Shown: positions 19,193-54,844, counted from the first letter of the stretch. The stretch is DNA of 64,000 bases from an uncultured Elusimicrobia bacterium (GCA_964358485.1 CAYHPY010000001.1:81382-145381), one strand, 5' to 3'. The notes: generated by a model not told the origin, from the sequence alone. Numbers and translations: made by a program.

Positions 19193-19199
19193 TTATAGT

Positions 19200-19262
19200 A
19201 AAAATAGGGACACCCCCCATTTTTACCATCGCTTGGTAAAAATGGGGGGTGTCCCTATTTTT
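19200..19262 (-). terminator. 28-bp perfect inverted repeat (hairpin) at the lysC stop codon, likely a bidirectional terminator
   Basis: aaaaatagggacaccccccatttttacc / atcgctt / ggtaaaaatggggggtgtccctattttt: perfect 28-bp arms, a 7-nt loop and T-runs on both sides. Lies between the lysC stop and the exonuclease start. Confidence 0.5.
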
Positions 19263-20493
19263 ATTTTCTGGTTAGGCCGTAGGCTTTGTGGAGGGCGCGC
19301 AGGGCGGTTTCGGCGTGGCGGGAGTCCACCACGCAGGAGATCCGCAGGTCGGAGGCGGTGATCATGTGGATGTTGACCCCGGCCTTGGCCAAGGTCTCGA
19401 ACATCCGAGCCGCCACCCAGGGGTGGTGCCGGAAACCCGTGCCCACCGCCGAGACCTTGGCCACGGATTCATTCAAGTCCACCCGGGCCTTGAGCTCGCG
19501 GGCCACCTTCTCCAGCGCCGCCACGGCTTTGGAGCTTCCGGCGCGGGGCGTCATGAAAGAAATCGCGTTGACGCCTTCCTTGGAGGGCGCCGACTGGATG
19601 ATCATGTCCAGCGGGATGGCCTTGGCCGCCAAGGCCGACAGGATGCGGGCGGCCACGCCGGGGCGGTCCGGAACGTCGGCCACCGTCAGGCGCACCTCGC
19701 CCTTGTCCAGGGCCAGGCTCGAGACATAGGCTTTTTCCATCGCGCGGTTTTTCATGCCTCTCCTTTTACTCACGATCCAGGTTCCGTTTTGGGGGTGGAA
19801 GGCCGAGCGGACATGGATGTCCACCTTGTAGCGGCGGGCGACTTCCAGGGACCGCGCCTGCATGACCTGGGCGCCGGCTCCGGCCAGCTCCAGCATTTCT
19901 TCAAAGGTGAGCCGCTGGAGCTTGCGGGCCTGGGGGACGACGCGCGGGTCGGCGGTGTAGACGCCCTTGACGTCGCTGAAAATCTCGCAGGCCCCGGTCT
20001 TAAGGGCCGAGGCCAGGGCCACCGCGGTCAAGTCCGAACCGCCCCGGCCCAAAGTGGTGACGTCGTCGCTGGGGTTGAGAGCCTGAAAGCCCGCCACGGT
20101 CACGATCCGCCCGGCCTTGAGATGCGCCCGAATCCGGTCGGTCCGGATGCGGACGATCTGCGCTTTGGTGTGGGCTCCGGCCGCCACGATGCCCGCCTGC
20201 GGGCCGGTCAAGGAAACCGCGGGCGCGCCGCGGCCGATGCACGCCATGGCAAACAGGGAAATCCCCACCTGCTCGCCGGTGGAGACCAGCTGATCCAGCT
20301 CCCGCTCGTCGGGCTCGGGGACCACGCGGGCGGCCAGCTCCAGAAGCTCGTCGGTCATCTCTCCGGGGGCCGAGACCACCACCACCACGGCATAGCCCGC
20401 CCGGCGCAAAGCCACGGCCCGGTCGGCCGCCCGCTGGATCTTCTCGGGATCAGCCACCGAGGTCCCGCCGAACTTGAGCACTTTGATCTTCAT
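19261..20493 (-). CDS. lysC: aspartate kinase with C-terminal ACT domains
   Basis: MKIKVLKFGGTSVADPEKI...VVVVSA is the classic aspartokinase N-terminus. The start is trimmed to the ATG at 20493 (the track ORF extends upstream). Confidence 0.9.
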   Translation of the reverse strand: MKIKVLKFGGTSVADPEKIQRAADRAVALRRAGYAVVVVVSAPGEMTDELLELAARVVPEPDERELDQLVSTGEQVGISLFAMACIGRGAPAVSLTGPQAGIVAAGAHTKAQIVRIRTDRIRAHLKAGRIVTVAGFQALNPSDDVTTLGRGGSDLTAVALASALKTGACEIFSDVKGVYTADPRVVPQARKLQRLTFEEMLELAGAGAQVMQARSLEVARRYKVDIHVRSAFHPQNGTWIVSKRRGMKNRAMEKAYVSSLALDKGEVRLTVADVPDRPGVAARILSALAAKAIPLDMIIQSAPSKEGVNAISFMTPRAGSSKAVAALEKVARELKARVDLNESVAKVSAVGTGFRHHPWVAARMFETLAKAGVNIHMITASDLRISCVVDSRHAETALRALHKAYGLTRK

Positions 20494-36863: not shown

Positions 36864-36867
36864 TATT

Positions 36868-36932
36868 GGTGCCAGGTATCCACTTTCTTAACATTCTTCC
36901 GGGGAAAGTTTAGAAAGTGGATACCTGGCACC
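36868..36932. mobile_element. MITE-like 65-bp element with perfect 21-bp terminal inverted repeats (copy 1)
   Basis: ggtgccaggtatccactttct...agaaagtggatacctggcacc flanking a 23-bp core (taacattcttccggggaaagttt). Sits 4 bp after the OMP stop codon; a near-identical copy is at 54774-54838. Confidence 0.55.
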
Positions 36933-40725: not shown

Positions 40726-41292
40726 GTGAAAATGAAAATTCTATTCCTCGTCATCGCTTTCCTCCCCGTGTTCGCATCGGCGGGAAATCCTATCCAAAAA
40801 ACAAAGCGGAATGCGCTACAGAAAAAATTTGACTCTTTGGTGTTGCGCCTGAATTCTATTCCGGGAGGCAAGTGCCTGAGTCAGGAAGTCGCTTCGTCTT
40901 TCGAGGTTCCGGAGCATTGGGAGTGCCGTTTGGAGGAAGTCGATGCTGAGTCCACCACCGATGGGATGGTGCATAACGCGAATCTCCTGGTGGAAATCTC
41001 TACGACAGCGGCCGAACGGGGAGCCAGGCGATTAGTGTTTTTTTCAATGGAGTGGGGTTCGGATCGCAGAAGCGTGGAATACTACACTTTCATCACTTCC
41101 CTGGACGGCGAACTGGTCAAGGCCTTGGAAACGCACAGCAAACGGGACGAAAAAGGCCAAGGGGTGAGGGGCTCGGCCATCGACATCCCCCAGGACCTAA
41201 AAGCCAAAGAAATCCGCGACCGCTATAAGCACGAACTCGAGTTCTGGCTCGACGGCAAGTACCGCAAGAAGCAGAAGCCGAAAAAGAACTAG
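40726..41292 (+). CDS. secreted hypothetical protein (left boundary paralog of the secreted-protein island)
   Basis: Signal peptide MKMKILFLVIAFLPVFASA. The C-terminus RYKHELEFWLDGKYRKKQKPKK matches the C-terminus of the protein at 52754-53350 ([18 protein letters not shown]). Confidence 0.5.
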   Translation: MKMKILFLVIAFLPVFASAGNPIQKTKRNALQKKFDSLVLRLNSIPGGKCLSQEVASSFEVPEHWECRLEEVDAESTTDGMVHNANLLVEISTTAAERGARRLVFFSMEWGSDRRSVEYYTFITSLDGELVKALETHSKRDEKGQGVRGSAIDIPQDLKAKEIRDRYKHELEFWLDGKYRKKQKPKKN

Positions 41293-41433
41293 CCGCCGCC
41301 CCCTTACGGATCGATGGTTTATTTACCATCAATCCCAGAGGGACCCAAGGGGATGCCCAAAAAGGCCGGCGGGAAGTAGGCCAATTCGCGCCCTTGACAG
41401 TTCCAGCCTCCGGCCCTATCCTATAGCGATCCC

Positions 41434-41853
41434 GTGACCCTATCCCGCCCCTGGCGTTTCGCCCTCGCGGGCGGCCTCTTCTTGGCCGCCGCGCCCATCC
41501 TTCAAGCGGGCACGGATTTTCTCAATTTCAGGGAGACCAGCGTTCCTCAGGAGGTCCGGGCCGATTTGGAGACAATCGGCTACGTCTTTGAAGAAAGATT
41601 CGGAGGCGTTCGAAAACCCCGTGAATGGCCCTTGGAAAAGGCTGAATATCTCGCCTTCCTGGAGCCTCACGACCTGAAAGCCAAGCCCATCGATGAAAGT
41701 CTTCGTGTTTCCTTGCTCCTTCGCGGCTACCGAATGGATCAGGACGCGGGACGCATACTGACCGGGGAGCCCGCCCGGCCACGAACTTGGAGATCCAAGC
41801 CTTCAAGAAATCCATGGAGGACGCCCAGCGGGCCAACAGCCTGGAGCGACTGA
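41434..41853 (+). CDS. secreted N-terminal ORF, possibly the frameshifted 5' part of the downstream HExxH gene
   Basis: Signal peptide MTLSRPWRFALAGGLFLAAAPILQAG. It overlaps by 67 nt, in another frame, the 41787 ORF, which lacks both a signal peptide and an ATG start. Confidence 0.4.
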   Translation: MTLSRPWRFALAGGLFLAAAPILQAGTDFLNFRETSVPQEVRADLETIGYVFEERFGGVRKPREWPLEKAEYLAFLEPHDLKAKPIDESLRVSLLLRGYRMDQDAGRILTGEPARPRTWRSKPSRNPWRTPSGPTAWSD

Positions 41854-43118
41854 CCCAATTCCTATCCGAGCAGAACCCCGATAGGCCGCTGCACTTCAAT
41901 CATTGGATGAAAGCGAAAGGGATGGGAGCGGAGGGCCCTCCCGGGTTGGTCGGCGCCCTCCAGGATCCCAACCAAAAAGCGGGCGAGCTGCTGTCAACCG
42001 CCCGCCAGGCTCAATTGGAAGGCGCCCGCGTTTTCGACGGCAAGAAATCCCTGCCTGACTGGGACAAGGACACTTTGCCGGTGAAGCCTGATTGGGGCGG
42101 GGCAAGCCGGGTGCCCTACGCGGGGGATGTGGAGCGGCGCTTGGGCTCCCTCTTAAGCGCCTCGGCGGAGACCCACCTGGCCAAGAACCCGGCGGGCCGT
42201 GAACTGCTGGACCGCTTCCGCGGCAAGGACGGCAAGGTGGAGCTGCCCGCCTTCCTCATCCTGCCGATCAACGACTCCATGGACGCCGCCTACTCGGCCC
42301 CCAACAAGGCGCTGATCTTCAATCAGACCTACGTCGTCAGGGGGATGACGGAAAAACTTCCCGAGAGGAAGCGATCGGAGCTCCGCCGGGAGCTGGCCGA
42401 CCCCAAGAAGTTCGCGGAGTATCTGTTGGCGCATCCCGAGGCCCGGGACGCCTTCATCGCCGGCCACGATGTTCAGATGGTCCACGAGTTGACCCACGGG
42501 TTTCAGGACCGCCTGGGGACGTTGTCGGAGGAGCAGGAGCGGGGAAACCTGCCGCAGGGGACCATCATCGAGAAGGAGACGGAGGCCTTTTTCGCGCATG
42601 CCAAGTACCTGCATCACAAATTGGTGCAGGATCCGGAGTCTGTGAGGGACAATCCGAGACTTGAGGAGTATGCCGAATTCATTAAAAGCGCTGAGGTTTT
42701 GGAAAAGATTGTTTCCGATGCTTACACGCAGAATTATCCGACGGGGGCGGCGACATTCCCTACCCTGAAATCCATCCAGAGGGAACGGATCAGCCAGGCC
42801 CGAATTTTAATAGGAGAGAGCGCGTACGAGAAAATCGGTGAATTGAAGCTTCGAGGCTTGCAAGCCGGCATGAAGGAATTGGAGGCCGAAGAGAGCCGAG
42901 TTTCGGCCAGGATGCTAAAATTCATGAATGACGAATACCCAGCGATTCAAATGGAGGGGCGAAGGCGATTGGCCGCCCTGTATATCGTGAAGGCGCGGCT
43001 TGAGCCGGAATGGTATAAACGGGATGGGTATTTAAATTCCGCCAAAGACTTGGTTTCCGATGAAAAATCTTTGCGCCTGATTGCGAGCTTGCGCACGGAG
43101 CCGCCCGAGGACGAATAA
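41787..43118 (+). CDS. HExxH-motif protein (putative zincin-like metallopeptidase)
   Basis: Contains VHELTHGF (HExxH). A TTG start is inferred (the first ATG is at 41814). Its 3' third is duplicated at 43936-44211. Confidence 0.5.
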   Translation: MEIQAFKKSMEDAQRANSLERLTQFLSEQNPDRPLHFNHWMKAKGMGAEGPPGLVGALQDPNQKAGELLSTARQAQLEGARVFDGKKSLPDWDKDTLPVKPDWGGASRVPYAGDVERRLGSLLSASAETHLAKNPAGRELLDRFRGKDGKVELPAFLILPINDSMDAAYSAPNKALIFNQTYVVRGMTEKLPERKRSELRRELADPKKFAEYLLAHPEARDAFIAGHDVQMVHELTHGFQDRLGTLSEEQERGNLPQGTIIEKETEAFFAHAKYLHHKLVQDPESVRDNPRLEEYAEFIKSAEVLEKIVSDAYTQNYPTGAATFPTLKSIQRERISQARILIGESAYEKIGELKLRGLQAGMKELEAEESRVSARMLKFMNDEYPAIQMEGRRRLAALYIVKARLEPEWYKRDGYLNSAKDLVSDEKSLRLIASLRTEPPEDE

Positions 43119-43645
43119 TGAGAAAGACTGTTTTCGCCATTTTTGCCGCCTTTTTCTCGGCCTGCGCCAATAAAACATCCGTTCCCGGCATGGAGTTGGC
43201 CGTTTACGAAGACCCATCGGGCCTATTCTCTTGTGAGGGTCCCGCCGATTGGCGCGTTCACGAACATCGAACGCATAAAGGTTTTGTCCAATTTTTCGGC
43301 CCGGCGGGAGACGCGCCCTTCGGAGCATCTATCGGCATCCATTACGTCCATCCCGATAATCCCGGTATTTTTACCCCGATCGACAAGTATCCCGCGCTGA
43401 TGTCATCCGGGGCCGTGCCGCGCGAGCGCCTATGGCGCGGCCAAAAAGTCATCGAGTTCGACTACCTAAAAAAGCCGTTCGAGATCCACGGCAAGGTCGA
43501 GCCGGGAATGCGGAAGCATTTAAGCGTGCTCATCCCCGCCAAGACCGGCTATTTCGTCCTCGACCATTCGGTCAACGAGAAATACCACCACGAGACTAAG
43601 CACGTGTTTGAGACCGTGGTCAACAGCTTTCGCCCGAAAGACTAA
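43118..43645 (+). CDS. lipoprotein, paralog A
   Basis: Signal peptide plus lipobox-like Cys (MRKTVFAIFAAFFSACANK). About 88 percent aa identity to 44211-44735; start is coupled to the upstream stop (TAATGA). Confidence 0.6.
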   Translation: MRKTVFAIFAAFFSACANKTSVPGMELAVYEDPSGLFSCEGPADWRVHEHRTHKGFVQFFGPAGDAPFGASIGIHYVHPDNPGIFTPIDKYPALMSSGAVPRERLWRGQKVIEFDYLKKPFEIHGKVEPGMRKHLSVLIPAKTGYFVLDHSVNEKYHHETKHVFETVVNSFRPKD

Positions 43646-43649
43646 ATTC

Positions 43650-43790
43650 AGCGTTTCGACTTGCCGCGGCGCCGTTTTTCCGGGGCTCTTGAGGCGCCCA
43701 GTGCATCCTGGAGCCGCCGCCGCCGTATCCTCGGCCTCGACCACAGCGCGTCTTCGGCCCCGGAAGGCGGCCTGCAGGCGCCGGAGCAAT
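43650..43790 (-). pseudogene. remnant of SEC-C-domain gene (internal deletion in duplicated copy A)
   Basis: The minus-strand fragment LRRLQAAFRGRRRAVVEAEDTAAA matches the C-terminal part of the intact gene at 44732-45799. Confidence 0.4.
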
Positions 43791-43807
43791 GGGGGCGCGG
43801 AATTAGG

Positions 43808-43850
43808 GAAAGCTTAAGTAGGGCGGTGCCAGGTATCCACTTTCTGCATT
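43808..43850. repeat. 45-bp junction repeat containing a solo MITE TIR
   Basis: agggaaagcttaagtagggcggtgccaggtatccactttctgca carries the 21-bp TIR (43825-43845). The same repeat ends duplicated copy B at 45838-45880. Confidence 0.6.
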
Positions 43851-43935
43851 CCCTACCCTGAAATCCATCCAGAGGGAACGGATCAGCCAGGCCCGAATTT
43901 TAATAGGAGAGAGCGCGTACGAGAAAATCGGTGAA

Positions 43936-44211
43936 TTGAAGCTTCGAGGCTTGCAAGCCGGCATGAAGGAATTGGAGGCCGAAGAGAGCCGAGTTTCGGC
44001 CAGGATGCTAAAATTCATGAATGACGAATACCCAGCGATTCAAATGGAGGGGCGAAGGCGATTGGCCGCCCTGTATATCGTGAAGGCGCGGCTTGAGCCG
44101 GAATGGTATAAACGGGATGGGTATTTAAATTCCGCCAAAGACTTGGTTTCCGATGAAAAATCTTTGCGCCTGATTGCGAGCTTGCGCACGGAGCCGCCCG
44201 AGGACGAATAA
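43936..44211 (+). pseudogene. duplicated 3' fragment (91 codons) of the HExxH gene
   Basis: Nucleotide sequence 43851-44225 is near-identical to 42755-43130. It encodes only the C-terminal 91 aa (MKLRGLQAGMKELEAE...), with no upstream gene body. Confidence 0.5.
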
Positions 44212-44735
44212 TGAGAAAGACTGTTTTCGCCATTTTTGCCGCCTTTTTCTCGGCCTGCGCCAATAAAACATCCGTTCCCGGCATGGAGTTGGCCGTTTAC
44301 GAAGACCCTTCGGGCCTATTCTCTTGCGAGGGACCCGCGGATTGGCGGGTTTATGAGCACAAAGGCGATAAAGGCCATGTCCAATTTTTCGGACCGGCGG
44401 GAAACTCGCCCTTCGGAGCCTCCATCGGCATACATCACTTGCACCCCAGCGAAGCCTGGTTTGTCCCGATCGACAAGTATCCCGCGCTGATGTCGTCGCG
44501 GGCCATTCCTAGGGAGCGCATGTGGCGCGGCCAAAAAGTCATCGAGTTCGATTACCTAAAAAAGCCGTTCGAGATCCACGGCAAGGTCGAACCGGGAATG
44601 CGGAAGCATTTAAGCGTGCTCATCCCCGCCAAGACCGGCTATTTCGTCCTCGACCATTCGGTCAACGAGAAACACCACCACGAGACGACGCAGGTATTCG
44701 ACGCCGTCGTCAACAGCTTCCGTCCCAAGGATTAA
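44211..44735 (+). CDS. lipoprotein, paralog B
   Basis: The same signal/lipobox N-terminus as 43118-43645, with a diverged central region (YEHKGDKGHVQFFGPAGNSP...HHLHPSEAWFVP). Confidence 0.6.
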   Translation: MRKTVFAIFAAFFSACANKTSVPGMELAVYEDPSGLFSCEGPADWRVYEHKGDKGHVQFFGPAGNSPFGASIGIHHLHPSEAWFVPIDKYPALMSSRAIPRERMWRGQKVIEFDYLKKPFEIHGKVEPGMRKHLSVLIPAKTGYFVLDHSVNEKHHHETTQVFDAVVNSFRPKD

Positions 44736-45799
44736 GTGCCGCGCCGCGGACCCCCGCGGCGCCGTTTTTTCGGGGCTTTGGAGGCGCCCAACGCTTCCAC
44801 GAGGCGCCGAGCCCGGTCCGCCAACTCCGCCGGGACCGGCAGGCCCAGGGCTTCCCGCATCCAGATGATGGAGGGGATGTTCAACGAGCCCGATAGTGCG
44901 TCGGGGGCGCGCGCGAGCGAGGACTCGTATTCCTTGAGCAGGTCGGCGAGAAACCTCCTCCCTTCTGAGTTGCCGGCGGCTTGGCGGGGGGTCCGGCCTC
45001 CCAAAGCGGGCACGGGTTCGTCCGGCCAGCGCCTTTCCCTTTCCTGGAGGGCTCCCGCCAGGGCGCTTCGGGGATCCGCCGCCGCCGTATCCTCGGCCTT
45101 GACCACAGCGCGTCTTCGGCCCCGGAAGGCGGCCTGCAGGCGCCGGAGCAATGGCGGCGCGGAATTGAGGAACGCCTGCCATGAAAGGCCGGGCTCATGG
45201 ACCTTGGCCATGCGGTAGGCGCCCTCTACCTCAAACTTGAGTTCCAAGCGCTCCAGAGGGGAGAACACGACGGCTTCGCCCCAGGCTTCCGCGGGTCCGC
45301 CCTGGCGCCTCAGGCGCATCCCCAAGACGTCCCAAACCGCCGCTTGGCGCGAGGACGACACGTCGGCCACATCGAACTTCTCGCCGGAGAAGAGATCCTG
45401 GACGGCCAGGCCCGTCCCGGGACGGACCTCAAGCACCTCGACGATCGTGACGGCCGTGGACTTATGCTTGGCCAACTCGGAGCGGTCGGAAGCGCTCAAG
45501 TCCTCGGCGCGCTCGGCCTCGAAGCGCTCCAGCAAGGTCCGTCCGCCCCGGCGGCGGCCGGTGATCAGCCAGTCCAAAAATAAGCCGAAACGGGGTCCCT
45601 CCTTGACCGGGCCGGCCTCTCCGTGTTCCTCCCAGGCGGCCTGCAGTTCGGCCTTGCCTGCCGCCTCGAGCGCGAAGGCGGCGATCTCCTCGGTGAGGGA
45701 CGTGAGGCGCGGCGTCGGGGCGCCGTCTTTCAGGCAGCAATTCTTATATTTCTTCCCGGAGCCGCAGGGGCAAGGCTGGTTTCGTCCGATTCTGCCCAT
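44732..45799 (-). CDS. SEC-C metal-binding motif protein
   Basis: N-terminal QPCPCGSGKKYKNCC (SEC-C/YecA-type Zn motif). The start is trimmed to MGRIGRN at 45799; 4-bp overlap with the paralog B stop. Confidence 0.6.
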   Translation of the reverse strand: MGRIGRNQPCPCGSGKKYKNCCLKDGAPTPRLTSLTEEIAAFALEAAGKAELQAAWEEHGEAGPVKEGPRFGLFLDWLITGRRRGGRTLLERFEAERAEDLSASDRSELAKHKSTAVTIVEVLEVRPGTGLAVQDLFSGEKFDVADVSSSRQAAVWDVLGMRLRRQGGPAEAWGEAVVFSPLERLELKFEVEGAYRMAKVHEPGLSWQAFLNSAPPLLRRLQAAFRGRRRAVVKAEDTAAADPRSALAGALQERERRWPDEPVPALGGRTPRQAAGNSEGRRFLADLLKEYESSLARAPDALSGSLNIPSIIWMREALGLPVPAELADRARRLVEALGASKAPKKRRRGGPRRGT

Positions 45800-45837
45800 A
45801 TATAAGAATAGGCTATCAATCTCAGAGGCGACCAAGG

Positions 45838-45880
45838 GAAAGCTTAAGTGGGGCGGTGCCAGGTATCCACTTTCTGCACT
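45838..45880. repeat. 45-bp junction repeat containing a solo MITE TIR (second copy)
   Basis: agggaaagcttaagtggggcggtgccaggtatccactttctgca; TIR at 45855-45875. Confidence 0.6.
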
Positions 45881-45896
45881 TTCCCCCGGGCCGATC

Positions 45897-46886
45897 CTAC
45901 CGCGCCAAATCGTCAAAGGCGGCTTGCGCGCGGCCATTGACGTAGTCCAGTTCCTTCTGCTCCACCCCCTCCATTTTCGCGACGGCTTCCATGAGTTGGG
46001 AGAGGTTGAAACGCATTAGAACGCAGGCCTCCCCGCTTTCCAGCTTCCAGGTCGCGCTTGGAGGGGTCTCCTGGAGAGCGGCGTCCAACGGCTTGCGCCA
46101 GGCCTTCATGGCCCAGGGTCGGGGACTTTCAGAGGCTATTTTCATTTCCTCGGGAGTCGGCGCGGGCATGTAGGGAGGGGACATCCAAGAGGCGGCGGCG
46201 ATATGCGCTCTCGCGAGCTTTCCGATTTCATCGCGAGCCATTTCCCGCCCATCGCGCCACGTCGCGGAGCTCGAGACGCTGCCAAAGCCGACTCCCTCGA
46301 AAAAGCGGCCTTCGGCTGTTTTGACGGCAGCCGAACCCCGTTGCGCCCAGGCCGGCTCGGGACCTAATTGGACGGCGGAAGAATCAAAAGCGATGAGGGC
46401 GTTATGGCGGTAGTATTGTTCGATCTTGTGGTCCAGGTTTCCCTGGGCCAGCACCGTTTTCACCGCTTCAGTGAGGGGAATCCGGACCAGGATGGATGGA
46501 GTTCCGGCAGGGGACTTCCACCGGGTCGTGGGGGGAGTTTTCTTGGCCAGGAGGAAAAGAGGGTCTTGCCAGCGAGGAGGTTTTCGCGGGATCCACTGCT
46601 CTTGGTCCTCATTAGGAAGATTGCCTGCGGTCGTAGACTCCATGTAAATGCGGGCCATGGTGTCGAAATGTTTTTTCGCCAAATCGTAGGCGGCCAAGCG
46701 GGCGGCTTCTTCGGTTTTACCGACGCCCTCGAAATGATCGCCTTCGGCCGTTTTGACGGCCGCCGTGCCCCGCTGGACCCAGGCGGGCACGGTTTCCGCC
46801 TCCCGTGCCCGGGGGCCCGCGCATGCCATGAGCGACAAAAAAATGGGCGGGGACAGAACTCTAAAGAAATCAATTCGGCGGTTCAT
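45897..46886 (-). CDS. lipoprotein with two tandem LPP20-like repeats
   Basis: Signal plus lipobox (IFLSLMACAG). Internal duplication: PAWVQRGTAAVKTAEGDHFEGVGKTEE versus PAWAQRGSAAVKTAEGRFFEGVGFGS. Confidence 0.5.
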   Translation of the reverse strand: MNRRIDFFRVLSPPIFLSLMACAGPRAREAETVPAWVQRGTAAVKTAEGDHFEGVGKTEEAARLAAYDLAKKHFDTMARIYMESTTAGNLPNEDQEQWIPRKPPRWQDPLFLLAKKTPPTTRWKSPAGTPSILVRIPLTEAVKTVLAQGNLDHKIEQYYRHNALIAFDSSAVQLGPEPAWAQRGSAAVKTAEGRFFEGVGFGSVSSSATWRDGREMARDEIGKLARAHIAAASWMSPPYMPAPTPEEMKIASESPRPWAMKAWRKPLDAALQETPPSATWKLESGEACVLMRFNLSQLMEAVAKMEGVEQKELDYVNGRAQAAFDDLAR

Positions 46887-47079
46887 CGGGTCTCATTGTA
46901 GCAGACGGCGGCCGCCGGGACCGGCAGGCCCAGTACCCCCGCGCCCCCTTACGGATCGATAGCTTATTTACAATCAATCCCAGAGGGACCCAAGGGGATG
47001 CCCAACCGCAGGCCCAAACTCCCGGGGCGGGGTTTCCCGAGGGCGACGCCCCCCGCCGGTTTCTTGCTACCATTCGCTC

Positions 47080-47628
47080 ATGAAGACCGAAGTCCGGCGC
47101 CTGAATCCCGAGACTCGCTGGGACTTCATGTCGCTGCGCGCCTACCCGGGCTGCGATTGGTGCTTTTGCGTGGCCTGGCATGTCCCGATCTGGGACGGCT
47201 GGAAGGAGCGGACCGCGGCGGAGAATCGGGCCCTGCGGGAGAATCTGTTTTCCCTGGGCCGCTACGACGGCTACCTGCTTTATGTGGACGGTCGGCCGTC
47301 GGGCTGGTGCCAGGTGGGGCCCCTGGCCTGGTTTCCCAAAATGGTCGGGCAATTCGGCCTGGAAGGGGAGCCCGAACAGACTCCGGTGGTGGGCTGCCTG
47401 GAAATCATCCCGGAGTATCGAAAACGGGGCTTGAGCCGGGTTCTCTTGGACGCGGCGCTCGCGGACTTGGGCCGCTCCGGCGTCCGGCGGGTCCTGGCCA
47501 TTCCCCGGGCCGGCCGGCACGAGGACGGAAAGGTTTGGACGGGGCCCATGGCGCTGTTTGAGTCGAGGGGTTTCAAGCCCCTGCGCGAGGCGGGGGAGCG
47601 GGTGGTGATGGAGTTCCTCGTTCCCTAG
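47080..47628 (+). CDS. GNAT family N-acetyltransferase
   Basis: 182 aa with acetyl-CoA-binding-like region LEIIPEYRKRGLSRVLLDAAL. Its 3' end is duplicated at 50100-50237. Confidence 0.65.
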   Translation: MKTEVRRLNPETRWDFMSLRAYPGCDWCFCVAWHVPIWDGWKERTAAENRALRENLFSLGRYDGYLLYVDGRPSGWCQVGPLAWFPKMVGQFGLEGEPEQTPVVGCLEIIPEYRKRGLSRVLLDAALADLGRSGVRRVLAIPRAGRHEDGKVWTGPMALFESRGFKPLREAGERVVMEFLVP

Positions 47629-47671
47629 ATTCCCCCTGCCCTGGCGTGTTCGGGGCGGAGGTGTTATCCTT

Positions 47672-48526
47672 ATGAGGATGCCAAAAAGGGGCCTTTGGGC
47701 GTTGGCGCTTTTATTCCTCCTTCCGGGAGCATGGGCGGCTCCACCCACCGATGAGGAGCTTGAGGCCGAGGACCGCAAGGAATTGGTCACGCCGGCGCCT
47801 CCGGATTTTAAGCCCGAGGACCAGGGAAAGAAGTTGAAGTTGACTCTTATTCCCCGGGACGCCGAAATCCACAGGGGGGAGGCCTTTTGGTTTCGCCTCG
47901 AAGTTCAAAACATTGGACGGACCCCTGTCCCTTTGAATGCGGAATGGTCATTTTTCAAGATCGGGTACGGTGAAGCGCTGGAATATCGATTCCTGGTGAC
48001 TCCTCCCAAGGGAGTTGAGAGGGAGGAGCCGGTCAATTTTTTCCCCACAATGGGGTATCGGTATTTTTCCCCAATCGTTCCCGGTGGCGATAAAATGTCT
48101 CCGGAGGAAAGGGCAGAGGCCTCTCGCCGTATTGAGGCGGAAATGCCATACAAGCGAGCCCGGGGATTCGGGCTTCGGATGCACTTGGCCCCAGGGGAGA
48201 CTCTCCGCACCCGCCCCTGGAAGCATCTGGAGCTAATCCAGGCATACAAGCGGTTGCGGCAGGGAGAAGATCCGTTTCCCCCTGTTCCCGGGGAATTTCG
48301 GGAAGTGGATTTCCACTCCATGGAATTCGATAAAGTCGGAACCTATCGAATTCGAATAGTTTTCACGGCTGATCCCTGGCTCAAGGCTCCGGATGGGGAA
48401 GAGATTGAGGAGGGCATCCGGCTTGGCCTTAGTCGGGAGTGGCAGATGGAGCAGTATAAGGCAAGACTTCGGGAATCCCTTGGCCGTTTCGAGTCGAACG
48501 TCGTTGAGGTTGAAGTCGTTCCGTGA
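47672..48526 (+). CDS. secreted protein, cassette copy 1 gene A
   Basis: Signal peptide MRMPKRGLWALALLFLLPGAWA. The first 49 aa are identical to 50281-51135, then about 65 percent identity; the C-terminus VVEVEVVP is shared. Confidence 0.6.
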   Translation: MRMPKRGLWALALLFLLPGAWAAPPTDEELEAEDRKELVTPAPPDFKPEDQGKKLKLTLIPRDAEIHRGEAFWFRLEVQNIGRTPVPLNAEWSFFKIGYGEALEYRFLVTPPKGVEREEPVNFFPTMGYRYFSPIVPGGDKMSPEERAEASRRIEAEMPYKRARGFGLRMHLAPGETLRTRPWKHLELIQAYKRLRQGEDPFPPVPGEFREVDFHSMEFDKVGTYRIRIVFTADPWLKAPDGEEIEEGIRLGLSREWQMEQYKARLRESLGRFESNVVEVEVVP

Positions 48527-50055
48527 TCGCGGGCTTGCTGGGTTCCTTCCTGCTGATTTTCTCCGGAGGCTTGGCCATGGCCGCCCCATGTCAGCCCCAA
48601 ATCCGGGACCGCCTATCTGCTTGCGAGCCGCCCAAGGCGGAACGCGATCTTCTTTTGGCGGTGGCTCGGAGAGTCGTCGAAGCCCATGGGATGTTTCAGA
48701 AATCCTTATCCCGGGAAGCCGCGTTAAGGAAAATGGCCGCAGGGGGCGAAGATTTGGACCTTCTTGGTCAATGGAAGCTGAGTTTTATCGAAATGGAATG
48801 GGAGCGCAAGCGGATGGAGTTATATTCGGAGCGCGCGCTGTCCGCGGCGCAAAAAATATACGGGATTGTTCCTCCGGTCGTTTCTGGAAACGTCGCCAAT
48901 GGCCCCATGGCGGGCCATCCGGTCAGTTGGAGTCCGCAGTTTTTGCGTTCCCGGGAAAACTACCGCCTTGGGGTTCGACCCGACGGCTCGGATTATTATA
49001 TGGAAACAGTCTTTGATCCCGGAGATGGTGGAATAACGGATGAGGACGGCCGGGTTAATATTGGCATCGGATCGTTTTATTTGGCAGCCGCGATGGGGGA
49101 TACCCTCTTTTTGGCCTTGACGGTACACCACGAAGGGTTTCACTTCTGGGAGCTATTGACTCGAGGTTGGGACACTCATGAGGCCGGGGAAAGTCGCGCA
49201 TGGGGCGAGACAGTCAAGGCGGCCGAGGCCATGGGGGCTGGAGAGGATGCGAAAAAGGCTGTCCACCATATCATGGCGGAAGTTGAGGAGGCGGCGCGGC
49301 AAGATGAATTGAATCCACCGTTCCATAGCGAGAAAATTCAGTTCGATGTGGCCTTGGACTACGAAAGAACCCAAATTGATTCCCATATTGCCGCAATGGA
49401 GCGAAAGGCATTGGACGCCCGGCTGGAATCAATGCGGGCCGAAGCCGCGGGGAAATCCGAGGAGGCCAAGAAGGCCGGAATGTTGGCCCGCTTGGAGGAG
49501 GAGGCCGCCCGCTGCGGGTTCAAGTTCCTTCACCCGGGCAATTGGAATCGATACGGGTTCTATGAAGAGGAGGTTCCGGGGAATAAGCACTTGGGGGCGC
49601 ACTATTATTTCGCCAGAGGCCTCACTTGGGATGAATTTCGGACGGTCCTATTTCTGGCGAGGGCTTGCCTGGATGAGGGGCTTAATGAGCCCTGCAACGA
49701 CGGCTTGGACATCATCAATCGTCGATGGGGTAAGGACGGCTTTGGGGAAGGGTGGGAACTGGCGGTGGAAGGCGGCCAGGGCGGGCAAAAGGCGTGCCTC
49801 GAATACCTTCAGGGACGGATCAAACCCCCCATGAACGTTCGCGGCATCGATAAGGCGGCCTCTCGGGCCTGGAAAGACCTCCGAAAGCGATGGAAGCGGG
49901 AGGGGGAGGCCGCCATGAGGCGCCACCGGCAACAGCAGGCGGAGGCCGAACGGCCGCGAAAACGCCGGGATTGGGAGGCTGATGATTCCGACGGGGAGAG
50001 CCGCTGCGGCAATGCGAATTCCGAAACCGGAATCGTGGGTTGCCGCTCCCGCTGA
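48523..50055 (+). CDS. secreted HExxH-motif protein, cassette copy 1 gene B
   Basis: Signal peptide, two Cys near the N-terminus (APCQPQ...SACEPPK), and an HExxH motif (TVHHEGFHFWEL). The C-terminal tail ...RCGNANSETGIVGCRSR is shared with 51132-52703. Confidence 0.6.
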   Translation: MIAGLLGSFLLIFSGGLAMAAPCQPQIRDRLSACEPPKAERDLLLAVARRVVEAHGMFQKSLSREAALRKMAAGGEDLDLLGQWKLSFIEMEWERKRMELYSERALSAAQKIYGIVPPVVSGNVANGPMAGHPVSWSPQFLRSRENYRLGVRPDGSDYYMETVFDPGDGGITDEDGRVNIGIGSFYLAAAMGDTLFLALTVHHEGFHFWELLTRGWDTHEAGESRAWGETVKAAEAMGAGEDAKKAVHHIMAEVEEAARQDELNPPFHSEKIQFDVALDYERTQIDSHIAAMERKALDARLESMRAEAAGKSEEAKKAGMLARLEEEAARCGFKFLHPGNWNRYGFYEEEVPGNKHLGAHYYFARGLTWDEFRTVLFLARACLDEGLNEPCNDGLDIINRRWGKDGFGEGWELAVEGGQGGQKACLEYLQGRIKPPMNVRGIDKAASRAWKDLRKRWKREGEAAMRRHRQQQAEAERPRKRRDWEADDSDGESRCGNANSETGIVGCRSR

Positions 50056-50237
50056 TCGGGCCGTCCTTTCCTCCCCGGTTCTGGCCCTTACTCCTGGCTT
50101 TGTCGGCTCCCGCCCGGGCCGGCCGGCACGAGGACGGGACAGTTTGGACGGGGCCCATGGCGCTGTTTGAGTCGCGGGGTTTCAAGCCCCTGCGCGAGGC
50201 GGGGGAGCGGGTGGTGATGGAGTTCCTCGTTCCCTAG
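50040..50237 (+). pseudogene. chimeric junction ORF: signal-peptide-like 5' part fused to a duplicated GNAT 3' fragment
   Basis: The 3' part (AGRHEDGTVWTGPMALFESRGFKPLREAGERVVMEFLVP) duplicates the GNAT C-terminus. The 5' part (SFPPRFWPLLLALSAPARAG) resembles the signal region of the gene at 52754. The junction is at the shared cccgggccggc. Confidence 0.5.
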
Positions 50238-50280
50238 ATTCCCCCTGCCCTGGCGTGTTCGGGGCGGAGGTGTTATCCTT

Positions 50281-51135
50281 ATGAGGATGCCAAAAAGGGG
50301 CCTTTGGGCGTTGGCGCTTTTATTCCTCCTTCCGGGAGCATGGGCGGCTCCACCCACCGATGAGGAGCTTGAGGCCGAGGACCGCAAGGAATTGGTCACG
50401 CCGGCGCCTCCGGATTTTAAGCCCGAGGGCGAAGAGCGGAAGCTGAAGCTGACGCTCATTGCCCGGGATTCGAAAATCCGCAAAGGCGAAAATTTTTGGT
50501 ATCGCCTCGAGGTCCAAAACGTCGGTCCTCGAGCCATTCCTTTTAAGGCGAAGTGGTCTTTTTTTAAGGTTGGATACGGAGAGGCGTTGAATTACCGTTT
50601 TCTGGTGACGCCTCCCGGCGGGGTCGAATTGGATCCGCCAATTCGGTTCATGTTGTCGATGGGTAGGGCCTATCTTGACCCTTTTGTTCCCGGTGGGGCA
50701 AAAATGTCGGTCGCCGAGCGGGCCGAAGCGGCTCGTAAAATTGCGGACGACATTCCCCGAAAAGAGGCGCGGGGTTTCGGGCTTCTGGTCAATTTGTCTT
50801 CGGGCGAGACTCTCCGCACCCGTTCCTGGGAATACTTGGACCAAGGCCGCGCCTATCGGCGGCTGAGACAAGGTGAGGATCCATTTCCTGCAACCCCGGG
50901 AGAATTTAGGGAATTGGCTCTCGCTTCGTTTAAATTCGATAAGGTCGGCACTTATCGTATCCGAGTGGAATTCGCGGCCGATCCCTGGCTTGTGGCTCCG
51001 GATGAGGAAGAGATTCAGGAGGGAATTGAGTTTGGCCTCACCCGTGAATGGCAAATGGAGCAGTATGAAGAGAGGGTCCAAAGATCCCTCGGCCGATTCC
51101 AATCCAATATCGTCGAAGTCGAAGTCGTTCCGTGA
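50281..51135 (+). CDS. secreted protein, cassette copy 2 gene A
   Basis: Paralog of 47672-48526. The upstream 190 bp (50238-50427) is identical to 47629-47818. Confidence 0.6.
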   Translation: MRMPKRGLWALALLFLLPGAWAAPPTDEELEAEDRKELVTPAPPDFKPEGEERKLKLTLIARDSKIRKGENFWYRLEVQNVGPRAIPFKAKWSFFKVGYGEALNYRFLVTPPGGVELDPPIRFMLSMGRAYLDPFVPGGAKMSVAERAEAARKIADDIPRKEARGFGLLVNLSSGETLRTRSWEYLDQGRAYRRLRQGEDPFPATPGEFRELALASFKFDKVGTYRIRVEFAADPWLVAPDEEEIQEGIEFGLTREWQMEQYEERVQRSLGRFQSNIVEVEVVP

Positions 51136-52703
51136 GAGTCGGGCTCCTCGCCCTTCTGTGGCTTATTTTCCCCGTTGGCCGGGCGGCTGCCGCCCCCTGC
51201 GATCTCGATCTTCAGAAACGCGTTTCGGTTTGTGAGCCGCCTAAGGAGGAACGCGAACGACTGATGAAAATGGTGCGGCGAGTCGTCGAGGCGCACGGGA
51301 TTTACCAGGATTCTTGGTCTCGGGAAATCACTCTGCGGGAAATGGCCGCCGGGAAGGAGGATTTGAATCTTCTGGGTAAATGGAGGCGGAGTTTGATCGA
51401 TGTTGAATGGCAACGGAAGAGGATGGAGTTGTATGCGGGGCGTGCTTTATTGGCGGTTCAGAGAATTTACGGAATTGTCCCCACCGCCATTTCCCGAGAA
51501 GTCTTCAATGGCCCGTTTGCGCGCCATCCTGCACGGTGGGAGCCGCGCTTCTTGCATTCAAGAAAAATCGGCGAGGGCGAATATCAGGCGGCGTATCGGT
51601 CCGAGAAGTGTCCGGATGGCTCGGAATATTTTTTAGAAACGAGATTCGGGTCTGGGGATGGTGGAGTAACTGACGAGGACGGGCAGGTTAATATTGGAAT
51701 TGAGGCGTTTTATTGGTCGGTCAGATATGGAAGCCCGCTCCTTTTGGCGTTGACGGTGCACCATGAGGAAGTCCATTTCTGGGAACTCGTGTCCAGCGGA
51801 TGGGACACGCATGAGGACGGGGAGAAGCGCGTGTGGGGAAAGACGCTCGCGGCGGCGGAGGCCATGGGAGCCGATGCTCTCATGAAGAATGACATTGAGC
51901 AACAAATGCTGAATTTTGAAAAGGACGCGGAAGGCGGGGGGGATGGAGTGGCGGCGTCGAGTTCCCCGTTTCATAGCGAGAATATTCAGTTCGATGCGGC
52001 CTTTGACTTCGAGAAAGCCTTGTTGGATTCTCAGATGGCGAATCTGGAACGCGGGGCCTTATCCCGGCGGCTGGAGGATTTGAGGGCCGAAGCCGCGGGG
52101 AAATCCGAGGCGGCCAAGAAGGCCGGGATGTTGACACGCTTGGAGGAGGAGGCCGCCCGCTGCGGGTTCAAGTTGCTTCACCCGGGCAATTGGGATCGAT
52201 ACGGGTTCTATGAAGAGGAAGTTCCGGGGAATAGGCACTTGGGGGCGCACTATTATTTCGCCAGAGGCCTCAATTGGGATGAATTTCGGACGGTCCTTTT
52301 TCTGGCGAGGGTTTGCCTGGACGAAGGGCTGGGGGAGCCTTGCAACGACGGCCTGGACATCATCAATCTGCGATGGGGAAAGGACGGCTTCGGGGATGGG
52401 TGGGAGCTGGCGGTGGAAGGCGGCCAGGGTGGGCAAGAGGCGTGCCTCGAATACCTCCAGGGGCGGCTCAAACCCCCCATGAGCGTTCGCGGCATCGACA
52501 CGGCGGCCTCGCGGGCCTGGAAAGACCTCCGAAAGCGTTGGAAGCGGGAGGGGGAGGCCGCCATGAGGCGCCACCGGCAGCAGCAGGCGGAGGCCGAACG
52601 GCCGCGAAAAATCCGGGATCGCGACACTGATGATTCCGACGATGAGCGCCGTTGCGGCAATGCGAATTCAGAAACCGGAATCGTGGGTTGCCGCTCCCGC
52701 TGA
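51132..52703 (+). CDS. secreted HExxH-motif protein, cassette copy 2 gene B
   Basis: Paralog of 48523-50055; HExxH present as TVHHEEVHFWEL. Conserved N-terminal Cys pair and C-terminal tail. Confidence 0.6.
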   Translation: MRVGLLALLWLIFPVGRAAAAPCDLDLQKRVSVCEPPKEERERLMKMVRRVVEAHGIYQDSWSREITLREMAAGKEDLNLLGKWRRSLIDVEWQRKRMELYAGRALLAVQRIYGIVPTAISREVFNGPFARHPARWEPRFLHSRKIGEGEYQAAYRSEKCPDGSEYFLETRFGSGDGGVTDEDGQVNIGIEAFYWSVRYGSPLLLALTVHHEEVHFWELVSSGWDTHEDGEKRVWGKTLAAAEAMGADALMKNDIEQQMLNFEKDAEGGGDGVAASSSPFHSENIQFDAAFDFEKALLDSQMANLERGALSRRLEDLRAEAAGKSEAAKKAGMLTRLEEEAARCGFKLLHPGNWDRYGFYEEEVPGNRHLGAHYYFARGLNWDEFRTVLFLARVCLDEGLGEPCNDGLDIINLRWGKDGFGDGWELAVEGGQGGQEACLEYLQGRLKPPMSVRGIDTAASRAWKDLRKRWKREGEAAMRRHRQQQAEAERPRKIRDRDTDDSDDERRCGNANSETGIVGCRSR

Positions 52704-52753
52704 CCGAGCCGTCCTTTCCTCCCCGGTTCCGGCATTGCTACAATCAATCCGGC

Positions 52754-53350
52754 ATGGCATTCTCCTCGGTTCTGGCCCTTCTCCTGGCTTTGACGGCCCC
52801 CTCCCGGGCCGGCGAGGCGCCCGCCGTCCCCACCTCCGCCTCCGCTCCGGCGAAGGCCGAGGTCAAGGCCTCCACCGCCGCCGCCAAGCCGGGGGCCGTT
52901 CCGGGGATGAAGAAGTTCGTCGCCCATGTCCTGGAGGAGGGGATGTCGGAATCCCTGCCCTCGGCCTTGGTCGCCGCCTATGAGCTTCCGGAGGGCCTGG
53001 ACGGAAGGATTTTGCAGGTCACTCCGCAGGAAACCACCGACGGCCTGCTCCACGCTTTCAACGCCCTGGTTCTCGAAGAAGAGCCCTCCAAGGTCCAGCG
53101 CTTGATCCTGCTGGCCCGCAAGCAGGCGGGCGACGGCCGGAACACCGAATTCCACGCCTTCATTTGCGCTCCCGACGGAACCTTGATCAGGGTGGTCCGC
53201 TCCGCCTGGAAAAACGACCCGGAGGGCCAGGCGATGGGCGCCTCGGCGTCGCATCGTCCGTTGAGCGCGGCGTCCCCGGCGGTCAAAGCTCTTTTCCGCC
53301 ACGAGCTGGATTTCTGGCTCAAGGGCCGCTTCCGGAAAAAGCAGGAATAA
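52754..53350 (+). CDS. secreted hypothetical protein (right boundary paralog of the island)
   Basis: Signal peptide [22 protein letters not shown] (start trimmed to 52754). The C-terminus [18 protein letters not shown] is like that of 40726-41292. Confidence 0.55.
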
Positions 53351-54770: not shown

Positions 54771-54773
54771 GAT

Positions 54774-54838
54774 GGTGCCAGGTATCCACTTTCTTAACAT
54801 TCGCCCGGGGAAAGTTTAGAAAGTGGATACCTGGCACC
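54774..54838. mobile_element. MITE-like 65-bp element with perfect 21-bp TIRs (copy 2)
   Basis: ggtgccaggtatccactttct taacattcgcccggggaaagttt agaaagtggatacctggcacc; begins 4 bp after the sthA stop. The core differs from copy 1 by 2 nt. Confidence 0.55.
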
Positions 54839-54844
54839 AATGAT

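Follow-up and report, generated by a model that had tools for sequence, protein, structure and literature searches.

A tandem duplication of a ~2-kb lipoprotein-bearing segment with mosaic divergence between its copies in an uncultured member of the Elusimicrobiota

Gene conversion between tandem bacterial paralogs is known, for example in the duplicated tuf genes, and the orphan toxin-tail/immunity modules of CDI and Rhs loci comprise a full gene, its partner, a 3′ fragment and a second partner. Homology-facilitated illegitimate recombination was reportedly described by de Vries and Wackernagel in natural transformation. The term itself is used in PMC6382021. The spontaneous duplications of enterobacteria, our remaining comparison, are unstable laboratory events, with junctions on record that hold 4–15 bp of identity in E. 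coli lac amplification (PMC1428787) and at least 11 bp in Salmonella chemostat rearrangements (PMC3411829). The locus described here resembles those duplications in being a few-kb head-to-tail repeat with a single novel junction, one breakpoint beside a hairpin-forming sequence, and breakpoints outside long repeats and IS elements, but differs from them in a junction identity of 2 bp and in being fixed in a natural population and remodelled by deletion.

The host is an uncultured groundwater bacterium of the Elusimicrobiota, and positions below count from the first nucleotide of the 64,000-nt stretch of its DNA that was analysed (the window). Self-comparison of the window resolves copy A (42754–43848; 1,095 nt), which holds the 3′ end of a gene encoding an HExxH protein, lipoprotein gene A, two remnants of a SEC-C gene and a 44-nt repeat, followed head to tail by the full-length copy B (43847–45878; 2,032 nt), with one novel junction. 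The A/B homology is collinear along the whole unit and lies far beyond chance. This head-to-tail repeat of a ~2-kb lipoprotein-bearing segment is confirmed as a genuine tandem chromosomal duplication: the repeat blocks, the single junction, other assemblies and a single-copy relative bear out the tandem duplication that an initial annotation had placed here, and the extent it gave the unit, which starts within the HExxH gene, takes in the lipoprotein and SEC-C genes and ends in a palindrome-derived repeat, also stands. It is an ordinary structural variant, with a history more complicated than first proposed.

The junction lies at 43847–43848, where the sequence reads CTTTCTGCA to the left and TTCCCTACC to the right and the end of copy A has the dinucleotide CA in common with the start of copy B. 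Among random breakpoint pairs in the window, an overlap of at least 2 nt occurs at P = 0.18, a chance level that does not sustain the earlier description of the event as microhomology-mediated; the acattccc/actttccc similarity put forward for it requires a gap, the strict overlap being 2 nt. Assignment to the microhomology class, in which a direct repeat, typically of at least 4 bp, is present at both ancestral breakpoints, was considered and rejected, as the junction shares CA alone. The right breakpoint falls after 45878, at the arm/loop boundary of a palindrome-derived element (45835–45891, plus strand), the first 44 nt of which recur as the repeat closing copy A (43805–43848, plus strand; 43/44 positions identical to 45835–45878). 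Within this repeat is a single arm (GGTGCCAGGTATCCACTTTCT) of a perfect 66-nt palindrome, full versions of which lie at 36865–36932 and 54773–54839. The "45-bp solo-TIR repeat" previously reported to end both copies is thus correct as a shared end repeat and incorrect in its length, which is 44 nt, and what it holds is a palindrome arm. We propose that a 2,032-bp segment, comprising the last ~120 HExxH codons, the lipoprotein gene translationally coupled to them, the SEC-C gene convergent to it and a portion of the palindromic intergenic element, would have been duplicated in tandem by illegitimate (non-homologous) joining with a 2-nt overlap.

At the assembly level, L001 and L002 share this junction, and the repeat borders coincide with breaks in L003 and L005. 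L001 contains the duplication in full, with 2 SNPs; in L002 the junction and the two SEC-C deletions are likewise present; L003 begins exactly at 43847; and the two contigs of the L005 scaffold each stop 55 nt inside a 462-nt block identical between the copies. Copy number in related strains, a check the initial annotation had suggested, agrees with a duplication, with the two-copy junction in L001 and L002 and one copy in the related organism L010. In the latter (85% nucleotide identity), a single HExxH–lipoprotein pair is present and the HExxH gene runs unbroken across the equivalent of the left breakpoint at 42754; an OMP gene, not a SEC-C gene, follows the lipoprotein gene, and the right breakpoint is thus not comparable. 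Coverage of every supporting assembly is 4–5x, and the sequences are metagenome-derived with evident strain variants (L002, L004), which lends something to the idea that two strain alleles of a single-copy locus, one with lipoprotein A and a deleted SEC-C gene and the other with lipoprotein B and an intact one, were concatenated during assembly, as does the tendency of several assemblies to break or scaffold at the repeat. We nevertheless regard such an artefact as very unlikely: breaks at 43847 and 55 nt into the block are the behaviour of a true repeat, an identical junction occurs in three assemblies that otherwise differ by SNPs and indels, and no k-mer or overlap assembler can fuse the remains of the palindrome with an internal part of the HExxH gene across 2 shared nt unless reads contain that fusion.

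Compared with its L010 counterpart, which is intact and encodes 562 aa, the HExxH gene carries a frameshift: in the alignment, a deletion of 4 nt near 41771 severs an N-terminal ORF containing the signal-peptide part (41434–41853, plus strand) from the main ORF (41787–43118, plus strand); the same frameshift is present in L001, L002 and L005. The motif itself (H233-E234-x-x-H237, at ~42483–42497) lies outside the duplicated part. As a candidate gluzincin-like zinc metallopeptidase, the protein has H233, E234, H237 and the downstream Glu E264 invariant in four homologues; dN/dS against L010 is 0.12. Sequence searches of Pfam, NCBIfam and the PDB returned no relative of this protein, and its structure model was poor (pLDDT 66) and gave no fold match. 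The orphan 3′ fragment of the gene (43847–44211, plus strand) consists of the last ~120 codons, without the HExxH motif, and retains the ribosome-binding context of lipoprotein gene B; gene callers mark an 82-aa ORF in this region of L001 and L002. The duplicated portion had been given as the last 91 codons, a count that corresponds to the ORF from the first TTG (43936), whereas the actual length is 365 nt.

An intact SEC-C-motif gene occupies 44732–45799 in copy B (minus strand; 355 aa from the ATG at 45799). Copy A keeps this gene as two separate pieces, namely remnant 1, from the gene's 3′ end (43646–43719, minus strand; ~70–80% identity to 44736–44809), and remnant 2, an internal piece (43710–43807, minus strand; 96% identity to 45072–45170), and we therefore assign two deletions, equivalent to 44810–45071 and 45171–45834 of copy B, which together removed ~930 nt of SEC-C. 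A later deletion in one SEC-C copy had been anticipated, though with about 24 codons left; the two pieces amount to ~55 codons' worth. The upstream SEC-C copy may have become dispensable and decayed because the duplication parted it from the region upstream of its own start codon. Pattern matching places a terminator-like GC hairpin with a T-run after lipoprotein gene B, within the SEC-C 3′ end (44741–44762, plus strand); the same scan detected no hairpin after lipoprotein gene A, the left arm being mutated in SEC-C remnant 1. Since that hairpin has degenerated, lipoprotein gene A, the HExxH fragment and lipoprotein gene B probably form one transcript from the HExxH promoter, as judged from pattern scans. 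Upstream of the HExxH operon there is a promoter-like site (TTGACA-17-TATCCT; 41394–41422, plus strand), taken from a consensus scan that found 2 sites against 1.5 expected and hence not significant by itself.

Lipoprotein gene A (43118–43645, plus strand; 175 aa, lipobox FSAC) has a start that overlaps the HExxH stop (TAATG), and its exact protein is also found in L001 and L002; lipoprotein gene B (44211–44735, plus strand) encodes 174 aa. The two proteins are 87% identical, with differences at residues 48–104 and 157–167. The comparison of A with B suggested earlier gives a dN/dS of 0.22 across the genes and, for the variable tract, 0.27, and both genes are shown to be intact and under purifying selection.

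Identical and diverged tracts alternate sharply between the copies, synonymous and non-coding sites included. From the left border, 462/462 nt are identical (42754–43215 and 43847–44308), a run with a chance probability of ~1e-17 at the mean A/B divergence, subject to the caveat that de Bruijn-graph collapse of a near-repeat could inflate this identity as well as that of an 829-nt tract in L002. There follow 47 differences in 212 nt with a 3-nt indel (43216–43430 versus 44309–44520; ~22% over 215 nt), 3 in 152 nt (43431–43582 versus 44521–44672; 98% identity) and 14 in 63 nt (43583–43645 versus 44673–44735), up to the SEC-C remnants. Within the lipoprotein genes, dS between A and B is 0 for codons 1–32, 0.68 for codons 33–105, 0.067 for codons 106–155 and saturated from codon 156 to the end, and synonymous divergence differs among these segments (Fisher P = 1.3e-6). 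On a reading along the lines of the initial annotation, a microhomology-mediated duplication was followed by a deletion, and the paralogs then diverged through ordinary mutation, with selection perhaps speeding up change at residues 48–90. The tandem structure and the deletions it called for are confirmed, and the variable tract does fall where the family alignment is least conserved and rich in indels and where loops are predicted, the A–C lipobox being nearly invariant. Gradual change after duplication is, however, at odds with the 462 identical nt, with the perfect conservation of the functionless HExxH fragment (365 nt) within them and with the jumps in dS, an on/off mosaic at synonymous sites beyond the reach of protein-level selection; the variable tract also gives no sign of positive selection, and the 2-nt overlap is at chance level. 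We accordingly give that account hardly any weight. As the mosaic extends to synonymous sites, recombination must have shaped the copies, and either gene conversion or import of foreign alleles is needed. A diversity-generating retroelement target was also considered and rejected: its differences would be limited to adenine positions of one copy, and here every one of the four bases is affected, with changes running both ways.

The explanation we favour, with somewhat better than even confidence, over an old duplication with gene conversion is a recent illegitimate 2,032-bp duplication with divergent patches imported by recombination. The duplication would be recent because functionless DNA (365 + 143 nt) is still 96–100% identical between A and B and has not been purged. 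The divergent tracts (43216–43430 and 43583–43719) would then derive not from post-duplication mutation but from diverged alleles present in the population and brought in by homologous recombination. L004 gives a direct view of patchy import at this locus: it matches copy B exactly over 1,050 nt but has 20 differences inside a 90-nt stretch (43992–44079). No donor of these patches was found.

If the dS of the variable tract is instead read as a date, the duplication becomes as old as the split from the lineage lacking it: lineage-level dS to L010 is 0.54–0.89, against 0.68 for the A/B variable tract, and in this variable part A, B and the outgroup L010 are equidistant. Under such an old duplication (dS ~0.7) with concerted evolution, repeated conversion within the genome would have erased differences in the 462-nt, 152-nt and SEC-C/palindrome blocks while selection keeps the variable tracts distinct, and this would also explain the alternating tracts, together with the derived patch that each copy shows of its own relative to L010. 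In L002, SNPs at 43025, 43034 and 43063 are mirrored in copy B at 44118, 44127 and 44156, and its copy B carries an A-type variable tract that yields the 829-nt identical tract; this looks like a conversion captured within the population, although exactly the same pattern would arise from collapse of a repeat node in that 4.6x SPAdes assembly. The locus has in common with paralog gene conversion long identical tracts beside diverged ones and, unless assembly collapse produced them, the same SNPs in both L002 copies; it differs in that the identical tracts cover functionless DNA and the divergent tracts stand as far apart as an ortholog from another lineage. An old duplication would require ~500 nt of functionless DNA to outlast the time since the L010 split, and the locus is single in L010, with no SEC-C gene next to it. 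We consider it possible but rather improbable.

Alternatively, the recent duplication could have started out with two different alleles, if incoming DNA was joined by homology-facilitated illegitimate recombination. The pattern suggests that this process may have operated here: it provides a homology anchor at one end and a join of a few bp at the other, and so diverged alleles in tandem with a tiny overlap, as at this locus. In such a one-step origin, which we put forward as a tentative and on balance unlikely proposal, DNA of a diverged strain would have integrated beside the resident allele through a homologous anchor and a 2-nt illegitimate join, and the cell would have gained a second, functionally distinct lipoprotein variant, the variants still exchanging tracts. 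If so, the gene would encode a hypervariable envelope lipoprotein, possibly the inhibitor or immunity partner of an uncharacterised, so far Elusimicrobiota-only HExxH enzyme.

The gene order at the duplicated locus is also that of the CDI/Rhs modules (full gene, partner, 3′ fragment, second diverged partner), and the copies might accordingly be read as an orphan effector-tail/immunity module or as exchangeable lipoprotein cassettes for programmed surface variation. Identical blocks flank the variable tract, L002 has a swapped tract, and the T6SS immunity protein Tsi3 and the Eag chaperones belong to the same fold class as the lipoprotein. Such a cassette system nonetheless appears highly improbable. 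The fragment matches the tail of the parent gene at 100% identity and is non-catalytic, leaving no alternative effector or toxin domain, and on its left it is bounded by a one-off illegitimate junction whose formation also copied the unrelated SEC-C gene. No secretion-system genes adjoin the locus. At seven other module loci (L010, L011–L014, L071 and L073), the recovered contigs hold one HExxH gene and one lipoprotein gene each, with no duplicated partner or orphan fragment, though several of them stop no more than a few hundred bases past the lipoprotein gene.

The HExxH protein and the PsbP-fold lipoprotein constitute a conserved, uncharacterised two-gene module. The duplicated lipoprotein is predicted to combine a lipobox with a PsbP/Mog1p-like alpha-beta sandwich fold: the model of lipoprotein B (pLDDT 86.8) has a PsbP/Mog1-like fold, and all 32 PDB matches at E ≤ 1e-3 belong to the PsbP/Mog1/DcrB class (Foldseek E down to 2e-7, TM 0.5–0.6, sequence identity 8–19%). 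By sequence, the Pfam PsbP score is ~17–17.5 bits, below the 23.5 threshold. Among the members of this fold class compared (DcrB, the Tsi3 immunity protein, the EagT6/SciW chaperones and LpqN), the likeness is one of predicted fold; DcrB and LpqN also have a lipobox signal peptide, and the obligatory pairing with an HExxH protein, not described for these families, sets the present lipoprotein apart. The co-duplicated SEC-C gene encodes a SEC-C motif protein, its CxC...C(C/H) motif scoring above the Pfam threshold (PF02810; E = 2.3e-9, 37.4 bits versus a cutoff of 20.4, residues 6–23) and matching SecA C-terminal zinc motif peptides in the PDB; gene callers extend its start to 45937 (401 aa).

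Self-comparison of the window revealed a head-to-tail repeat consisting of copy A (42754–43848; 1,095 nt) and copy B (43847–45878; 2,032 nt). Copy B, the full-length unit, comprises a 3' fragment of an HExxH-motif gene (43847–44211, the last ~120 codons), lipoprotein gene B (44211–44735), whose ATG overlaps the HExxH stop codon (TAATG), a convergent gene on the minus strand encoding a SEC-C-motif protein (44732–45799; Pfam SEC-C, E = 2.3e-9, with SecA zinc-motif matches), and a 44-nt end sequence (45835–45878). Copy A has the same gene order, with SEC-C reduced to two remnants (43646–43719 and 43710–43807) following lipoprotein gene A (43118–43645); the counterparts of copy B 44810–45071 and 45171–45834, ~930 nt in total, are deleted. 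The 44-nt ends of the two copies are 43/44 identical, and each holds one arm of a 66-nt perfect palindrome. Only ~80 nt separated the duplicated SEC-C copy, on its upstream side, from the breakpoint, so that it became detached from whatever sequence drives the intact one; its decay in copy A fits with this separation. A weak match of the SEC-C protein to Xre_MbcA_ParS_C (E = 9e-4, below the cutoff) was dropped as a toxin–antitoxin lead, as there is no adjacent toxin partner.

Other assemblies support the repeat as genuine. Judged by its aspartate kinase, which has ≤75% identity to any GTDB representative, the organism belongs to an uncultured Elusimicrobiota lineage, and contigs L003 and L005 from Hainich groundwater match the window at 99.97% and 99.99% identity, respectively; assemblies ERZ1292620–22 derive from Hainich well H52. 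Contigs L001 (ERZ1300416) and L002 (ERZ2470813) contain the identical junction, both deletions and both lipoprotein genes, while carrying SNPs and indels relative to the window elsewhere. Contig L003 starts exactly at 43847, and in the scaffold L005 a run of 100 N joins 42808 to 44254, both of its contigs ending 55 nt inside the identical block; these breaks are the behaviour of a true repeat in a de Bruijn graph. An assembly artefact is thus unlikely: the junction recurs in L001 and L002, the contig breaks are of the repeat type, and the assembler could not have invented a junction whose two sides share only 2 nt. Coverage of all supporting assemblies is 4–5x, and the duplication was checked at the assembly level. 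The observation in the initial annotation holds once its numbers are corrected, and of its interpretation the tandem duplication and the later SEC-C deletion stand; the duplication is real, previously undescribed and mechanistically ordinary. For metagenome-assembled genomes, this illustrates that other assemblies and contig break points allow a tandem duplication to be checked even where reads are lacking.

The ancestral arrangement is indicated by L010 (from SRR22388291), a single-copy relative with 85% nucleotide identity to the window and 88% identity in the HExxH protein. Its locus contains one intact 562-aa HExxH gene, followed directly by the lipoprotein gene and then by an outer-membrane beta-barrel gene, with no SEC-C gene and no second copy. 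Since the L010 HExxH gene runs uninterrupted across the position equivalent to 42754, the left side of copy A is ancestral and the fragment at 43847–44211 is the derived product.

Turning to the mechanism of joining, the left boundary reads ...GGCGGCGA[CA]TTCCCTACC, the right boundary ...CACTTTCTG[CA]CTTTCCCCC, and the duplication junction ...CACTTTCTG[CA]TTCCCTACC, giving a strict overlap of 2 nt; the junction-spanning sequence, with the point of join marked by a bar, is ...CCACTTTCTGCA|TTCCCTACCC.... Random breakpoint pairs drawn from the window (200,000 pairs) overlap by 2 nt or more with P = 0.18, whereas experimentally characterised bacterial duplication junctions have 4–15 bp (PMC1428787) or at least 11 bp (PMC3411829). 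The two SEC-C deletion junctions show a few ambiguous bases of microhomology at most, with none clear at deletion 2. The microhomology-mediated mechanism originally proposed is therefore not demonstrated, and the accurate label is an illegitimate join with minimal overlap. The right breakpoint coincides with the arm/loop boundary of the half palindrome element. Insertion of a mobile element as the origin of the shared 44-nt end was rejected: in copy A this end is bounded on the left by a deletion junction and on the right by the duplication junction, and the palindrome arm occurs only six times in the window, twice solo, with one solo arm being the duplicate.

The two copies differ in a strikingly uneven manner. 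They are identical over 462/462 sites at 42754–43215, 22% different in the variable tract at 43216–43430, 2% different at 43431–43582 and again 22% different at 43583–43645; beyond the lipoprotein genes, the SEC-C 3' remnant is ~25% different, and the internal SEC-C remnant and palindrome piece are 96–98% identical. At the mean divergence, an unbroken run of 462 identical sites would have P ~1e-17. The same mosaic appears at synonymous sites, with dS between lipoproteins A and B of 0 in codons 1–32, 0.68 in codons 33–105, 0.067 in codons 106–155 and saturation from codon 156 to the end (Fisher P = 1.3e-6 for the contrast between segments). Because both copies show dS of 0.36–0.99 to L010 in every lipoprotein segment, differential protein constraint is ruled out as the cause. 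Simple paralog divergence after duplication, as initially envisaged, does not account for this pattern; instead, the synonymous-site mosaics point to recombination, and uneven identity between copies should for this reason not be taken as divergence after duplication. Both lipoprotein genes are under purifying selection (A versus B dN/dS of 0.22 across the whole gene and 0.27 within the variable tract), with no signal of positive selection by this measure. Within the variable tract, A, B and L010 (outgroup O) are equidistant, informative sites are split among BO|A (24), AB|O (18) and AO|B (17), and each copy has a strongly divergent private patch, at 43216–43300 in copy A and 43336–43430 in copy B. 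Mutagenesis of the DGR type was excluded for this tract, as the mismatches are not adenine-specific.

Two histories could generate such a mosaic. We propose that the duplication would be recent and that recombination with alleles already diverged would have supplied the divergent tracts. The locus itself gives a direct view of such patchy import in L004 (from another sample, SRR32696700), which matches copy B exactly over 1,050 nt but shows 20 differences in a 90-nt stretch of the HExxH tail; the non-matching first 23 nt of this contig are Illumina adapter CCTACACGACGCTCTTCCGATCT and were rejected as an alternative junction. Possibly, both events occurred in one step: homology-facilitated illegitimate recombination that captured an incoming allele would leave tandem copies already diverged and a tiny junction overlap. 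Less likely is an old duplication maintained by concerted evolution through gene conversion, a history supported by L002, which has three SNPs in both copies and its copy B carries an A-type variable tract, giving an identical tract of 829 nt; however, the same pattern is equally expected from a collapsed repeat node in a low-coverage assembly. Reading the divergent tracts as a clock would place the duplication no later than the split from the L010 lineage (HExxH dS 0.54), which is single-copy and differs in its downstream neighbour. Moreover, the HExxH fragment and SEC-C remnants, ~500 nt of DNA without function, would have had to persist that long while being homogenised to 96–100%. As such survival is the less likely course, we favour a recent duplication with recombination, at roughly twice the probability of an old one with conversion. 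An orphan cassette in the style of CDI/Rhs systems was unsupported: the fragment is identical to the tail of its parent gene, has no catalytic motif and was duplicated along with a gene unrelated to it, and no such arrangement recurs within the contigs recovered for other loci of the HExxH–lipoprotein family.

The HExxH protein and lipoprotein form a conserved, unannotated two-gene module in groundwater Elusimicrobiota. Stop and start codons overlap (ATGA, GTGA or TAATG) in L010 and in the more distant loci L011–L014, L071 and L073, at ~30% protein identity; one genome (L072) has the lipoprotein homolog without the HExxH gene. In L011–L013 the pair lies directly downstream of a lipid A biosynthesis acyltransferase gene (Lip_A_acyltrans), and in L072 the lipoprotein homolog, without a lipobox cysteine, likewise follows Lip_A_acyltrans; this neighbourhood in distant relatives hints at a cell-envelope context. 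Residues H233, E234, H237 and E264 are invariant in the HExxH family, which has no relatives in Pfam, NCBIfam, the PDB or GTDB representative genomes, has one locus in JGI metagenomes, and gave a poor structure model. For the lipoprotein, a single-sequence search returned its own cluster only and a profile search 20 distant members. Its confident model (pLDDT 86.8) has a PsbP/Mog1p-like fold, a class that also includes DcrB, LpqN, the T6SS immunity protein Tsi3 and Eag chaperones, which suggests a protein-binding partner and nothing more specific. Predicted loops (50–56 and 78–86) contain the variable residues, which also map to where the family alignment is least conserved; the lipoprotein is a partner with a fast-evolving, recombining surface region. 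Relative to the intact L010 homolog, the window's HExxH gene is broken by a 4-nt deletion near 41771 that splits the signal-peptide part (41434–41853) from the main ORF (41787–43118), a frameshift present in all four assemblies of the population; dN/dS of 0.12 against L010 indicates that this inactivation is recent. By pattern scans, a promoter-like site lies at 41394–41422 and lipoprotein B is succeeded by a GC-rich hairpin and T-run (44741–44762), but no terminator-like site follows lipoprotein A, where the corresponding left arm is mutated; lipoprotein A, the HExxH fragment, which keeps a GAGGA ribosome-binding context, and lipoprotein B may therefore share a transcript from this promoter-like site. 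The pair is a reasonable target for work on envelope proteases and inhibitors in uncultured phyla. Overall, the locus offers mostly a caution and a small case study, and none of these findings overturns existing knowledge.

The 66-nt palindrome (arm GGTGCCAGGTATCCACTTTCT) is complete at two intergenic sites, 36865–36932 and 54773–54839, one of which sits exactly between two convergent stop codons; the solo arms lie at 43825–43845 and 45855–45875. As a DNA hairpin it has an energy of ~−29 to −30 kcal/mol (z = −10.9). A separate, unrelated 65-nt palindrome is present at 19199–19263. These palindromes look REP- or MITE-like, and an Rfam scan of 36.5–55.5 kb returned only sub-threshold miRNA-hairpin matches on perfect palindromes.

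A second, older tandem duplication lies downstream (47504–50123 and 50113–52813; 75–89% identity), containing two orphan genes (284 aa and 510/523 aa) and beginning inside the 3' end of the upstream GNAT gene (47080–47628). Unlike the 2-nt junction of the copy A/B unit, its junction has a clear 10–11-nt microhomology, CC(C)GGGCCGGC. The L005 scaffold differs here, in that its second copy resembles copy 1 (99.7%) rather than copy 2 of the window, through either a strain difference or an assembler loop. A 68-nt direct repeat (41293–41360 and 46939–47005; 94% identical) flanks the block that extends from the HExxH promoter region up to where a 329-aa lipoprotein gene starts, and may be either a shared regulatory element or a scar left by a further rearrangement; it is missing from L010 because homology there begins only at 41389. 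This 329-aa lipoprotein (45897–46886, minus strand, upstream of SEC-C) belongs to no Pfam family and has an internal repeat (46288–46360 versus 46720–46792; 79% identity), indicating that it is built from two homologous halves. The segment 40708–41127, the 5' part of ORF 40726–41292, is hypervariable or recombined: within 420 nt it has ~25 small indels and several substitutions relative to L001 and L002, in which the ORF is not called, and it is identical in L005. Finally, an unusual fusion, perhaps defence-related, is an 814-aa protein (28464–30908, minus strand) with a Schlafen group-3-like helicase domain (E = 3e-85) and, at its C terminus, an S24 (LexA-like) peptidase domain.
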